From: an uncultured Rhizobiaceae bacterium | GTDB taxonomy: Bacteria; Pseudomonadota; Alphaproteobacteria; UBA7879; VGCX01 | Assembly (NCBI GenBank): GCA_964350815.1 | Contig: CAYGKW010000003.1 | Span: 26,500-90,499, forward strand | Reading direction: 5' to 3' | Length of the DNA: 64,000 nucleotides | Shown here: positions 18,646 through 25,617 of the stretch, piece after piece | Position numbering within the stretch: position 1 is the stretch's first letter | Layout of the letters: each line of letters begins with the position of its first letter | Translations under genes and position numbers: made by a program | Notes under the pieces: generated by a model | Database searches by the model: none | What the model saw: only the letters and a program-made list of their open reading frames with translations | What the model was told of the DNA's origin: nothing

Positions 18646-20358
18646 ATGAAAGAAAAAATATTTAAAATTATATCCAACCCGAATACCCCCTATTGGAAAG
18701 ATTTTTTTATCCTATTTTTAATTCTTGGCCCTATTCTATTTGGCTTTCTTGATCTGCGTCCCTTTGCCGTTCCGGATGAAGGCCGTTACGTTGAAATCCC
18801 AAGGGAAATGGCTGTAACAGGTGATTATATTACCCCGCGCCTGAATGGGCTTAAGTATTTTGAAAAGCCCCCGTTAATGTATTGGGTCCAAAGCTTTTTT
18901 ATTAAATCTTTCGGCCTCAAAGAGTGGGCAATGCGTTTGCCACTTGCGATCATGGGCTTATTTGGATGCTTTATGATTTATGCCGCGGGGCGTTTTTTGT
19001 TTAATCGTTCTTCTGGATTAATTGCTGCAACTATATTGGGATCCAGCCTACTTTATATTGTGTTATCCCAATTGATCACCTTGGATATGGGCGTTTCTTT
19101 TTTTCTAACGGCTTGTTTATTATCCTTCATAACAGCGGTCAATTTACAAAATTCCCAGCGCCGTCTATTTATGTATTGTGCTGCCATTTTTGCGGCTTTG
19201 TCCGTTTTAACGAAAGGGCTTATTGGATTGGCCTTGCCTGGTTTAATTGTTCTTATCTGGATAACCTTAACAAATAACTGGAAATTACTGGGCCAACTTT
19301 ATTTGCCCACCAGTATCTTAATATTTTTTGCAATCGCCACCCCGTGGCATATTTTGGTCAGCCTTAAAAACCCAGAATTTTTTGATTTTTATTTTATTAA
19401 TGAACATTTCAACCGCTTTTTAACCACGGTTCACCGCCGGTATCAACCTTTTTGGTTTTTTGTTCCCATTATCATTGCGGGGTTTATGCCTTGGACATCT
19501 TTCATGATCAAAGCCCTGTATAAAAGCATAAAATCTGCAAAGAAAAACCCCAATATTTTATTCTTTTTGCTTTGGACCCTTGTTCCTTTTGTCTTTTTCA
19601 GCCTGTCCAATTCAAAATTAATTCCTTATATTTTACCAATTTTTCCAGCCTTGGCCTTAATAACAGCAAACCACATATCGGATTGCATTCAAAAAAAGCA
19701 AAGCCTGCGATTTGAAATATTTGTTTTCAGTGGGATCTGTCTGGCCATTATGTTGGCCGGTTTTTATGGCATCCAAAGAATTGATTTGGACCTGTTTCTT
19801 AAATTAAAACCTTATATTATTCTTTTGTACTTTATTCTTGGGTTTTCGGCTGTAATACCCCCCATCCTTCGCATTTGGAAGGGAAATTTCTGGGCCTTTT
19901 GTTCAATTTTGGCCAGTGGACTTCTTATTATTATCACGGCAAATCTTGCATCTGTTCATGCCAACAAAATTTCCATCAAGCCTTTGGTTGCAAAGCTTAA
20001 AGCAATTATGCCGGAAGACACCAAAATCATCAGTTATTCAACGTATTATCACGATTTACCGGTTTACTTGAACAAGCTTATTACCATTCATAATTGGACA
20101 AATGAACTGGAATTTGGCCAAAAGATGGAGCCCCATAAGACACAGCGCCTAACCTATAATCATCAAGATGTGATTGATGCCTGGCAAAGCAAGGATTATG
20201 TTTGTATGTTTACAAAGCTTGAACTTTACAACAATAACTTAATTAATCAAAAATGGTTTACGCCCATGATCCTTGGCCAGCATGATAATCAAATACTGGT
20301 TTGCAATCGTATCCCCGAAGAGGCCTTGCAAAAATCTGCACAAGAAAAAATGCAATAA
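18646..20358 (+). CDS. arnT: undecaprenyl phosphate-alpha-4-amino-4-deoxy-L-arabinose arabinosyl transferase (GT83, ArnT-like)
   Basis: 570 aa polytopic membrane protein; DEGRYVEIPREMAVTGDYITPRLNGLKYFEKPPLMYW closely matches the ArnT periplasmic-loop signature. Confidence 0.85.
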   Translation: MKEKIFKIISNPNTPYWKDFFILFLILGPILFGFLDLRPFAVPDEGRYVEIPREMAVTGDYITPRLNGLKYFEKPPLMYWVQSFFIKSFGLKEWAMRLPLAIMGLFGCFMIYAAGRFLFNRSSGLIAATILGSSLLYIVLSQLITLDMGVSFFLTACLLSFITAVNLQNSQRRLFMYCAAIFAALSVLTKGLIGLALPGLIVLIWITLTNNWKLLGQLYLPTSILIFFAIATPWHILVSLKNPEFFDFYFINEHFNRFLTTVHRRYQPFWFFVPIIIAGFMPWTSFMIKALYKSIKSAKKNPNILFFLLWTLVPFVFFSLSNSKLIPYILPIFPALALITANHISDCIQKKQSLRFEIFVFSGICLAIMLAGFYGIQRIDLDLFLKLKPYIILLYFILGFSAVIPPILRIWKGNFWAFCSILASGLLIIITANLASVHANKISIKPLVAKLKAIMPEDTKIISYSTYYHDLPVYLNKLITIHNWTNELEFGQKMEPHKTQRLTYNHQDVIDAWQSKDYVCMFTKLELYNNNLINQKWFTPMILGQHDNQILVCNRIPEEALQKSAQEKMQ

Positions 20359-20478
20359 CGACGTCCTGTTTTTTAATCCTTCCCATAACATATTGAGTTA
20401 ACAAGAGGACGAGGCATAAGAGACGACGCCTACGAATGGTAGGCAAGGAACGCAATAACGACGTCCTATTTTTTAATC
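20352..20478. repeat. 27-bp direct repeat (GCAATAACGACGTCCTRTTTTTTAATC) at 20352-20378 and 20452-20478, flanking a 73-bp spacer
   Basis: Two copies with one mismatch; copy 1 spans the arnT stop codon and T-tract, copy 2 sits upstream of arnB. Confidence 0.7.
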
Positions 20479-20544
20479 ACTATGTTATAAAATTTTTCTG
20501 GGCGATTATTGAACTTTATGCTATTTTCTAGATGCTGAAGGAGT

Positions 20545-23735: not shown

Positions 23736-24653
23736 ATGGCTAAGCTTAAAATTATGAATAATATGTCACCTAAGGTCGCGGCCTATGTTGGGTGTGCCTC
23801 TTTGGCCATGGGGATGTTAATGTTTGGTATAGGAAATGCCCTGATCAAAAAAACATCCGAAGAACTGCCTGTAATCGAAGTTGTCTTCATGCGCAGTTTG
23901 TTTTCTGTTTTCTATATGCTGATGTATCTTGTTGTAACCAAGAAATTGCATTGGCTGAAATCGCATAACCCCAAACTTCAAATCACCCGTGGTGTGGTTG
24001 GATTCTTTGGTCTGTATACTTTATTCTGGTCCTTTTCCCTTTTACCCTTGCCTGAGGCTACGGCTTTTACTTTTGCCAGCACCCCTTTTATAACAGCATT
24101 ATCTTATCCCATGCTGCGTGAACATGTTGGACTCCCAAGATGGGCCGCTGTCATTGTTGGGTTTATTGGTGTTTTAATTATTGCGCGTCCAACAGGCGAT
24201 GTCACAATGCTTGGGGCCACAGTTGCAATAACATCTGCTGCGATTGAAAGTATGATTATGGTTTGGTCCCGTCTTCTTAAAAAAGACAAGCCCATTACAA
24301 GTGTTTTTTATCACACGGCTATTATCACATTAATTGCCGCTTTCATCCTTCCCTTCCAATGGCAAACACCCAGCATGGAAAACCTACTTTCCCTTGCTGC
24401 CTTGGGTCTTGTTAGTTGCCTTGGACATATTTTTATTGTGTATGCTTACAGTATTGCCCCTGCAGTGGTTGTGGCGCCTATGCTTTATACCTTGATTATT
24501 TGGGGCGCTATGTTTGGATATATTTTCTGGGGCGAAACCTTAAGCACATCCTTAATCTTTGGGGTTCCTCTTATTGTTGCCAGTGGTGTGTATATTGTTC
24601 ACCGCGAACGTATCCGCAAGGTAGAACATGTTCAAGAGACAGAGCTAGGTTAA
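23736..24653 (+). CDS. EamA/DMT-family transporter (10 TM)
   Basis: 305 aa, two EamA repeats; paralogue of the next ORF (FFGLYTLFWSFSLLPLPEATAF vs FFQLVFLYWSFALLPMADATAI). Confidence 0.8.
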   Translation: MAKLKIMNNMSPKVAAYVGCASLAMGMLMFGIGNALIKKTSEELPVIEVVFMRSLFSVFYMLMYLVVTKKLHWLKSHNPKLQITRGVVGFFGLYTLFWSFSLLPLPEATAFTFASTPFITALSYPMLREHVGLPRWAAVIVGFIGVLIIARPTGDVTMLGATVAITSAAIESMIMVWSRLLKKDKPITSVFYHTAIITLIAAFILPFQWQTPSMENLLSLAALGLVSCLGHIFIVYAYSIAPAVVVAPMLYTLIIWGAMFGYIFWGETLSTSLIFGVPLIVASGVYIVHRERIRKVEHVQETELG

Positions 24654-24714
24654 AATCACCAAGCGTCATACCTATATAAAAAGTATCGTTTTAAACTTTT
24701 AAGAAAGCCTTGAT

Positions 24715-25617
24715 ATGACAATAAAACAACGCAGCCATACAAAAACTGTTTACCTTGGATGTTTATGTATGATTCTGGGGATGTTTTTCTTTGGAGTTAC
24801 AAATGCAGTGGCCAAAGCAACGGCAAATGACCTGCCTGCCAACGAATTGATTTTCTTTCGTGGATTGATCTCTTCTTTCTTAATGCTGATCTATGCAAAG
24901 TTTCGTAAATCTGAAAATTTATTGAAGGTTAACAACCCAAAACAACAAATTTGGCGTGGATCCCTTGGTTTTTTTCAATTGGTTTTTTTATATTGGTCTT
25001 TTGCCCTGTTGCCGATGGCTGATGCGACAGCCATATCCTTTGCCACAACTTTATTTGTTACAGCCCTTGCCTTTCCTATGCTTAAAGAAATTGTTGGGCC
25101 CCATCGTTGGACAGCCACAATCATTGGATTTTCAGGGGTGTTATTTATTGCGCACCCTTCCGGACACTTAGGATTTGAAGGCGCTGCCTTTGCAATTTTG
25201 GCAGCTTTTTTAGAAGCCGTTGTTATGATTTATGCCCGTCGCTTTGGAAAAGATACCAAGGCCTTTACAACTGTTTTTTATTACACTGCAACAACTTGTG
25301 TTATTGGGGGGCTTTTGTGCCCATTCTTTTGGGTAACCCCCACCTTAAATCAAATCTTATTAATGACTTTGCTTGGCTTTGCAGGAACAATGGGGCACAT
25401 TTTTATTGCCATGTCCTATCGCTTTGCCGAAGCCACGATTGTGGCCCCCATGTTTTACACCCTAATGATATGGGGCGTCATTTTTGGGGATATATTCTTT
25501 GGCGAAAAACCAACTTTGGATGTTTTACTTGGATCTGTTTTGATTATTGCTTGCGGGCTGTATATTGTTCACCGCGAAAGAAAAACACATCAAAAGCATA
25601 TTCCAGAACAATTATAA
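24715..25617 (+). CDS. EamA/DMT-family transporter (10 TM), tandem paralogue
   Basis: 300 aa, two EamA repeats; C-terminus YIVHRERK mirrors the YIVHRERI of the upstream paralogue. Confidence 0.8.
   Translation: MTIKQRSHTKTVYLGCLCMILGMFFFGVTNAVAKATANDLPANELIFFRGLISSFLMLIYAKFRKSENLLKVNNPKQQIWRGSLGFFQLVFLYWSFALLPMADATAISFATTLFVTALAFPMLKEIVGPHRWTATIIGFSGVLFIAHPSGHLGFEGAAFAILAAFLEAVVMIYARRFGKDTKAFTTVFYYTATTCVIGGLLCPFFWVTPTLNQILLMTLLGFAGTMGHIFIAMSYRFAEATIVAPMFYTLMIWGVIFGDIFFGEKPTLDVLLGSVLIIACGLYIVHRERKTHQKHIPEQL

Follow-up and report, generated by a model that had tools for sequence, protein, structure and literature searches.

Addition of 4-amino-4-deoxy-L-arabinose (Ara4N) to lipid A is encoded in Escherichia coli and Salmonella by arnBCADTEF (pmrHFIJKLM), and the formyl cycle of this pathway, formed by the formyltransferase domain of ArnA (FT) and the deformylase ArnD, has been described as indispensable both for the addition of Ara4N and for resistance to polymyxin. 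FT, ArnD and the selectivity of ArnC for the formylated donor have all been discussed as drug targets. Loci of the Burkholderia/Ralstonia type keep a separate formyltransferase gene and arnD. Our literature searches, which took in a 2025 review, turned up the formyl-dependent pathway only and no account of an arn cluster devoid of FT and ArnD. Here we analyze such a cluster in a 64-kb stretch of contig CAYGKW010000003.1 from an uncultured alphaproteobacterium (hereafter the window), in which arnT, arnB, arnC, a decarboxylase gene (DH) and two EamA transporter genes follow lysS. The genes of the module and its upstream neighbor are as follows:

17155-18642, plus strand: lysS, class II lysyl-tRNA synthetase, an open reading frame (ORF) that is the upstream neighbor of the module and lies outside the pathway
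18646-20358, plus strand: arnT, 570 amino acids (aa), homologue of the GT-C (GT83) undecaprenyl-phosphate-Ara4N:lipid A transferase, with PMT, PMT_2 and Arnt_C domains
20545-21711, plus strand: arnB, 388 aa, homologue of the pyridoxal phosphate (PLP)-dependent uridine diphosphate (UDP)-4-keto-pentose aminotransferase, DegT family
21715-22665, plus strand: arnC-like gene, 316 aa, GT2 polyprenyl-phosphate glycosyltransferase of an FT-less subtype (N93 in place of T98), matching the GT2/ArnC profile
22665-23723, plus strand: stand-alone UDP-glucuronate oxidative decarboxylase of the ArnA C-terminal type, 352 aa (UDP-4-keto-pentose synthase; short-chain dehydrogenase/reductase, SDR), matching NF008872
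23736-24653, plus strand: EamA1, 305 aa, transporter of the DMT superfamily with about 10 transmembrane segments (TM) and two Pfam EamA domains, the last conserved gene of the module
24715-25617, plus strand: EamA2, 300 aa, tandem paralogue of EamA1, likewise with two Pfam EamA domains

The six module ORFs lie on the plus strand exactly where an initial annotation, made from the sequence without database searches, had placed them, and its assignment of ArnT, ArnB, ArnC and a decarboxylase-only ArnA homologue was borne out by profile matches far beyond chance, including those of ArnT and ArnC. The sole NCBIfam match of ArnT was the lipid IVA Ara4N transferase model (E 5e-74; 250 bits versus an equivalog cut-off of 567), ArnB belonged to the DegT family (E 1e-133) and matched the UDP-Ara4N aminotransferase model best (E 7e-134; 446 bits versus 631), and the top match of ArnC was the ArnC model (E 3e-85; 286 bits versus an equivalog cut-off of 529). 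Because all three score below the NCBI equivalog cut-offs, they are, on these scores, divergent family members and not close orthologues of the enterobacterial enzymes. The SDR reached 559 bits on NF008872 ("bifunctional UDP-4-keto-pentose/UDP-xylose synthase"), passing the cut-off of 294, and aligned only to residues 316-648 of the full-length ArnA model. Compared with the system of E. coli and Salmonella, the window encodes recognizable homologues of ArnB (45% identical), ArnC (39%), the ArnA decarboxylase domain (54%) and, in its N-terminal 300 residues, ArnT (33%), and the route is predicted to take the same course overall, leading from UDP-glucuronate through UDP-Ara4N and an undecaprenyl phosphate-linked sugar to lipid A. 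In contrast to that system, the window has no FT domain, ArnD, small ArnE or ArnF, or linked regulator, its decarboxylase stands alone, arnT comes first and abuts lysS, and two 10-TM EamA genes close the cluster. In its workings the module resembles the Arn pathway, with clear members of the ArnT, ArnB, ArnC and ArnA-decarboxylase families, yet it fails two defining features, the formyltransferase and the deformylase, in addition to lacking small ArnE/F.

Three kinds of search agreed on the absence of FT and ArnD from the window, as the initial annotation had stated. Using E. coli proteins as tblastn queries (E<=10), we obtained no match in the 64 kb to the N-terminal FT of ArnA, ArnD, ArnE, ArnF or Ugd. 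Custom hidden Markov models (HMMs) built from related loci (58 FT, 42 ArnD, 40 small ArnE-like and 4 Ugd sequences; positive controls above 400 bits) returned zero matches to FT, ArnD or Ugd among all six-frame ORFs, and neither tblastn nor HMMs detected any ORF of the small ArnE/F type within the 64 kb. A Pfam survey covering the other ORFs of the window revealed no formyltransferase, CE4 deacetylase or GNAT. Extending the HMM search to seven further loci of the same lineage, in which ArnT identity to the window falls from 83% to 39%, again yielded neither FT nor ArnD (about 205 kb in total).

The arn genes were mapped across 20 genome loci and 80 metagenome loci, with the loci of relatives labeled L001 and so forth. 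Outside Enterobacteria, the clusters are commonly ordered arnT-(small arnE)-arnB-arnC-FT-DH-arnD; FT directly follows arnC in 58 related loci from other bacteria, and ArnD usually comes after the decarboxylase (environmental clusters with arnC-FT-DH-arnD include L012 and L019, among others). Many of the approximately 100 related loci begin with arnT-(small arnE)-arnB-arnC, typically continued by FT-DH-arnD, and the arnT-first order, which the initial annotation had singled out as a departure, is commonplace. Such arnT-first clusters, for example those of Nitrospirota (L006, L012, L032), share with the window the order and orientation of arnT, arnB, arnC and the decarboxylase gene (ArnC 55-59% and decarboxylase 63-64% identical), and the window resembles such a cluster minus FT, arnD and small arnE, plus EamA in the slot after the decarboxylase. 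With the split-ArnA loci of Burkholderia and Ralstonia it has in common only the separate decarboxylase of about 350 aa, for which B. pseudomallei PbgP3 is the nearest structure; unlike those loci, the window lineage has neither FT nor arnD. The gene orders of the lineage loci are as follows:

Window, L001 and L106: lysS-arnT-arnB-arnC-DH-EamA-EamA-accBC, no FT or ArnD
L108: grx-lysS-arnT-arnB-arnC-DH-EamA-mutY, no FT or ArnD
L009 and L112: lysS-arnT-arnB-arnC-DH-EamA, then opposite-strand genes, no FT or ArnD
L109: arnB-arnC-DH-EamA-EamA-accBC, without arnT, no FT or ArnD
L111: arnT-small arnE-arnB-arnC-DH-EamA-accBC, no FT or ArnD

An arnC gene abutting the decarboxylase gene is a minority junction among the mapped loci, and in the window lineage the gap between the two ranges from -1 to +100 nt, with no remnant in between. 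Through several rearrangements in the lineage, arnC, the decarboxylase and EamA genes stay tightly packed and FT or ArnD never reappears beside them; the clusters stop right after the decarboxylase or EamA gene, where unrelated genes adjoin. The initial annotation had considered that FT and arnD might lie in canonical order just outside the window. In that form this does not apply here, as their canonical sites are the arnC-decarboxylase junction and the position directly after the decarboxylase, both of which are closed in the window (-1 nt and 12 nt, respectively). Three candidate exceptions were discarded: a 290-aa ORF between arnC and the decarboxylase gene of L018, considered as a cryptic ArnD or FT, is of low complexity and has no Pfam or phmmer match; an FT-like match 3 kb from arnC in L023 is a housekeeping PurN (260 bits on TIGR00639); and L050, considered as an independent FT-less arn cluster, carries an SDR only 31% identical to that of the window.

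Our comparison of residues with characterized enzymes indicated that the module has remained intact. The only relative of ArnT in the PDB was C. metallidurans ArnT (5EZM, E 1.5e-68), and among the critical residues compiled in PMC8306577 the equivalents of D55/R58, E84, K85, D158/K203, R270 and Y345 (CmArnT numbering) are all kept, the sole change being that of the Zn ligand H265 to N. ArnB, 45% identical to its E. coli counterpart, carries the PLP-lysine motif FSFHxxKN. For ArnC, whose best PDB matches were the cryo-electron microscopy structures of the E. coli and Salmonella enzymes (E 3e-73), all 12 functional residues listed in PMC12690121 are conserved (P15, Y17, E19, D48, N77, D100-A-D102, Q104, R128, R131, R137 and R205), covering the DxD motif and the arginines that coordinate undecaprenyl phosphate and UDP. 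The decarboxylase matched Burkholderia PbgP3 best (3SLG, E 3e-131), is 54% identical to residues 317-650 of E. coli ArnA, and keeps ArnA T432, S433, E434, Y463, K467 and R619. In comparisons with L001 (83% identical) and L106 (78% identical), the ratio of nonsynonymous to synonymous substitution rates (dN/dS) was 0.03-0.09 for all six module genes wherever dS could be estimated, and the flanking sucD, lysS, accB and accC fell in the same range. Because catalytic residues are kept and purifying selection is as strong as on the housekeeping neighbors, the module is, by these measures, functional and vertically conserved rather than decaying.

Whether the formyl cycle is encoded elsewhere or bypassed, the alternative posed by the initial annotation, proved to be the right question. 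We tentatively favor a bypass, a formyl-independent shortcut in which ArnC would use UDP-Ara4N directly, and we put its probability somewhat short of an even chance. Along this route, UDP-glucuronate supplied by an unlinked Ugd would be converted to the UDP-4-keto-pentose by the stand-alone ArnA-type decarboxylase, and ArnB would transaminate this intermediate to UDP-Ara4N. The ArnC-like GT2 enzyme would then move the unformylated Ara4N onto undecaprenyl phosphate, thereby pulling the unfavorable transamination forward; the resulting undecaprenyl phosphate-Ara4N (Und-P-Ara4N) would be flipped across the inner membrane, possibly by the EamA/DMT proteins, and ArnT would pass Ara4N to lipid A. 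That ArnC takes UDP-Ara4N directly and that lipid A is the acceptor are inferences, as are the roles proposed below for the EamA proteins and the pattern of transcription.

The main rival to this reading, which we rank below it while regarding it as a realistic possibility, retains canonical chemistry with dispersed genes: a stand-alone FT and ArnD would lie at other genomic sites, as must be the case for ugd, and ArnC would use UDP-Ara4FN, the formylated donor. Several observations weigh against direct use of UDP-Ara4N and speak for such dispersal. The module is not self-sufficient, since no FT-less locus contains ugd either. The arn genes of the lineage do disperse: lysS of L002 has arnT beside it and no other arn gene; in L107, arnT stands alone beside lysS as far as the contig reaches (0.4 kb past arnT); and L109, from the same sample as L107, has no arnT. 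Some loci have only one of the two missing genes adjacent, FT occurring without ArnD in L006 and L047 and ArnD without FT in L003 and L048, which indicates that a missing partner can be encoded elsewhere. The related systems for galactosamine (GalN) in Francisella and glucosamine (GlcN) in Bordetella also run an N-acyl cycle. The strict requirement of E. coli ArnC points the same way, for this enzyme, the only ArnC known to have been tested biochemically, takes UDP-Ara4FN and not UDP-Ara4N (PMC12690121 citing Breazeale 2005; PMC12748117). Against dispersal, however, none of the eight lineage loci has FT or ArnD, nor does a second, independent clade, FT sits directly after arnC in the 58 other loci, neither gene returns beside arnC-decarboxylase-EamA despite the rearrangements, and the ArnC proteins of FT-less clades carry private substitutions at the donor motif.

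These substitutions are specific to individual FT-less clades. In a bootstrapped neighbor-joining tree, the ArnC proteins of the window lineage were monophyletic (bootstrap 100) and joined the FT-less L013 and L016 at 93 and the L008 group at 84, and a second FT-less clade (L015, L017, L018, L023 and L031) was separate, with a bootstrap of 100. The FT-less state is clade-coherent, and it turns up again in at least a second ArnC clade with good support. Position 98 precedes the DxD motif by two residues and holds T in 58/58 FT-linked ArnCs and N in 8/8 of the clade formed by the window lineage with L013 and L016; in the window ArnC this residue is N93. A101, inside the DxD motif, is A in 57/58 FT-linked ArnCs and C in 5/5 of the L015 group; the backbone of this residue contacts UDP (PMC12690121). 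L220 belongs to the interface helix that follows the A-loop; 58/58 FT-linked ArnCs have L there, one FT-less clade has V (L220V in the window ArnC) and the second has Y, and V200L is a further private substitution of the window ArnC at a (near-)invariant position of the 58. G282S was discarded as an indicator of FT absence: the FT-linked L029 and L030 have it too, which makes it phylogenetic. The bearing of the private substitutions on donor specificity is suggestive only. They could be plain phylogenetic signal, a point against direct use of UDP-Ara4N, because no ArnC structure defines the formyl-binding residues; neither of the two ArnC structure papers defines the formyl-contacting residues.

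Taken as a whole, the proposal that an uncultured alphaproteobacterial lineage and at least one other clade run a four-enzyme Ara4N route, in which a variant ArnC (of the T98N or A101C type) would accept UDP-Ara4N, the formyl cycle would be dispensable and a 10-TM DMT protein would act instead of or besides ArnE/F, is held with less assurance than direct donor use by itself. If true, it would overturn an assumed obligatory formyl cycle and imply that fewer genes than assumed can suffice to encode lipid A chemistry of the resistance type. An arn module naturally free of FT and ArnD and maintained by selection would make a long-standing question testable, namely why the amine is transiently formylated, be it for thermodynamic pull on ArnB, recognition by ArnC or control of flipping, and the ArnC variants T98N, A101C and L220V/Y are candidate specificity-switch residues. 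If FT and ArnD are encoded elsewhere, the module would be an ordinary dispersed operon in an uncultured lineage.

A further alternative, which we regard as improbable, is that another protecting group is used (for example, transient N-acetylation by an unlinked acyltransferase and hydrolase) or that the ArnC-like enzyme handles another sugar, so that lipid A would receive a different decoration. The subthreshold equivalog scores of ArnT, ArnB and ArnC (250 versus 567, 446 versus 631 and 286 versus 529) would be compatible with this, as would the transfer of GalN, GlcN or glucose by ArnT relatives elsewhere (PMC8306577). L003 makes variant acyl cycles plausible: this contig of "Candidatus Aquirickettsiella gammari" carries at 10001-15581, beside lpxK, arnT-arnC-ArnD-like genes, a divergent GNAT acetyltransferase gene and an ArnA-type decarboxylase gene, without arnB or FT, and may represent a different, perhaps N-acetyl, variant of the pathway. 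In the window, however, the decarboxylase scores above its cut-off with intact residues and the aminotransferase matches ArnB best, both of which point to UDP-Ara4N, and no GNAT, LbH acetyltransferase or deacetylase was found in the window or beside the lineage modules. The systems of Francisella (Flm; FlmF2/NaxD/FlmK) and Bordetella (Lgm; LgmA/LgmC/LgmB) resemble the module in pairing an ArnC-like undecaprenyl phosphate transferase with an ArnT-like GT-C enzyme that places a cationic amino sugar on lipid A (PMC8306577). They differ in starting from UDP-N-acetylgalactosamine or UDP-N-acetylglucosamine, in needing a deacetylase and in having no aminotransferase or decarboxylase; the window presents the reverse and has no deacylase. 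By gene content, the module is not of the Flm/Lgm type.

The two proteins encoded after the decarboxylase were correctly described in the initial annotation as 10-TM EamA paralogues, each having two EamA domains in Pfam and 9-12 hydrophobic segments in a hydropathy scan, with 45% identity to each other. Their placement at the position of ArnE/F was not sustained: a small ArnE-like gene normally lies between arnT and arnB, EamA occupies the slot after the decarboxylase, where arnD normally sits, and L111 has both kinds of gene. ArnE and ArnF are small 4-TM proteins (DMT/SMR-like, 111-128 aa) of the same DMT superfamily, unlike the window proteins of about 300 aa with two EamA repeats, and the similarity is at the superfamily level (E about 1e-4); the only window matches of the small-ArnE HMM were the two EamA proteins, and these were weak (E 3e-4 and 7e-4). 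A role as flippase for Und-P-Ara4N is possible, not established, and we consider it about evenly balanced against that of an unrelated transporter. What speaks for a link to the pathway is that in 8/8 lineage loci (window, L001, L009, L106, L108, L109, L111 and L112) the gene right after the decarboxylase is an EamA orthologue, the gap being 12 nt in the window, 11 nt in L109 and tens of nucleotides elsewhere. On its far side EamA adjoins accB, mutY or an opposite-strand MFS gene, depending on the locus, and the decarboxylase-EamA link persists even without arnT in L109. The dN/dS of EamA1 is 0.04-0.06. The EamA genes form a pair in the window, L001, L106 and L109 and are single in L009, L108, L111 and L112.

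It is nonetheless nearly as probable that the EamA genes stand outside the pathway, as general metabolite transporters (for example, of S-adenosylmethionine or of amino acids and amines) retained by shared ancestral synteny, and that an unlinked protein, ArnE/F-like or of another kind, performs the flipping. JGI labels homologues of 49% and 34% identity "S-adenosylmethionine uptake transporter", and the only NCBIfam matches of EamA1 and EamA2 were generic DMT models below cut-off, pointing to no specific functional subfamily. Small ArnE/F-like genes are present in L111, L013, L015, L016 and others, and L111 carries both such a gene, with ArnF and ArnE as its best NCBIfam matches, and an EamA gene; the idea that EamA replaced ArnE/F, suggested by their complementary distribution, is weakened by this locus. 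A tandem EamA pair 34-37% identical to that of the window occurs in L110 (10001-11828) on an alphaproteobacterial contig of 2.1 Mb, where ilvBHC is adjacent and no arn gene is near. Synteny by itself is weak evidence, since lysS is also kept beside arnT without a functional link, and accB-accC also follow EamA in five loci. Set against these points are the constancy of the decarboxylase-EamA junction while the downstream gene changes, the lack in the window of the small ArnE/F-like gene that most arnT-first clusters have, and the fact that the small-ArnE profile, however weakly, matches the two EamA proteins and nothing else there.

At the upstream end, the lysS stop codon (18640-18642) is followed by GGT and the arnT ATG at 18646, leaving a 3-nt spacer; the adjacency noted in the initial annotation is thus real, and the "translational linkage" it proposed is an extrapolation from this spacing. 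The lysS-arnT adjacency is kept in L002, L009, L106, L107, L108 and L112, at ArnT identities down to 39%, with spacers of 1-19 nt in most. In the window, the gaps between arnT, arnB, arnC, the SDR gene, EamA1 and EamA2 are 186, 3, -1, 12 and 61 nt, so that a real spacer exists between arnT and arnB. This spacer is not conserved in L001 (83%) or L106 (78%) and contains no ArnE remnant (stops in all frames; HMM silent); its folding was not significant (z = -1.9), and a consensus scan detected no terminator. Two features were located in it:

20352-20378 and 20452-20478, plus strand: 27-nt direct repeat, 26/27 identical, by which the 3' end of arnT, stop codon included, is found again 100 nt downstream, within the arnT-arnB spacer
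20501-20543, plus strand: conserved 43-nt element directly upstream of arnB, with a GAAGGAG ribosome-binding site, nearly identical in L001 and partly so in L106

The repeat may have been left by a small insertion or duplication, and the 43-nt element is a candidate internal promoter or leader. Transcription of arnT is probably driven from lysS, the two genes sharing one transcript, and the internal promoter would serve arnB to EamA2. Because the lysS-arnT junction is tight and ancient, no regulator lies nearby and a conserved element with a strong ribosome-binding site precedes arnB, this layout suggests constitutive expression from two transcription units rather than induction of the PmrAB type.

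The surroundings of the module offered several further observations. The lysS-arnT junction is part of a (bolA)-grx-lysS-arnT synteny block with class II LysRS in a deep alphaproteobacterial lineage (window 16824-18642; L002, L106, L107, L108 and L112). An opposite-strand trio absent from the window lies beside the arn module or lysS-arnT in L009 (15671-18907), L112 (10905-14156) and L107 (989-4555); it encodes an MFS protein resembling acetyl-CoA transporters, a GT-C PMT_2 glycosyltransferase 34-37% identical to the N-terminal half of ArnT, and a DnaJ-domain protein, with an extra small DUF2798 gene in L107. On the other side of the module, a membrane O-acyltransferase gene (Acyl_transf_3; 27607-28719) lies between accC and an MBL-fold gene, looks like a strain-specific insertion and is absent at this place from L106 (accC, then MBL-fold) and L001.

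The nearest species-level genome was the metagenome-assembled genome CAJXSI01, with ArnT 83% identical and the same gene order. A Pfam survey of the window recovered fabF, mltG, trxB, dut, mdh, sucCD, purC, grx, accBC, ssb, gyrA, asnB, two GT4 genes, mutY, uvrD and the stretch from mraZ to murD; Rfam detected three tRNAs only and no rRNA, which leaves the window without a direct taxonomic marker. The notion of an AT-rich intracellular symbiont, put forward in the initial annotation, found no support in this housekeeping content (tricarboxylic acid cycle, fatty-acid, purine and dcw genes), in GyrA, which among named relatives is closest to free-living Rhodospirillales genera (63-67% identity), or in the occurrence of module relatives in Tara Oceans scaffolds. 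The first 2 kb of the window have a GC content of 0.35, the second-lowest among its 2-kb bins, and four consecutive ORFs at 130-3633 (180, 260, 300 and 221 aa) have no Pfam match. Lastly, a GT4 ORF on the minus strand (38646-39839), with a GTG start at 39839, overlaps tRNA-Ser(CGA) on the same strand (39765-39853), and its real start codon must therefore be located further downstream.

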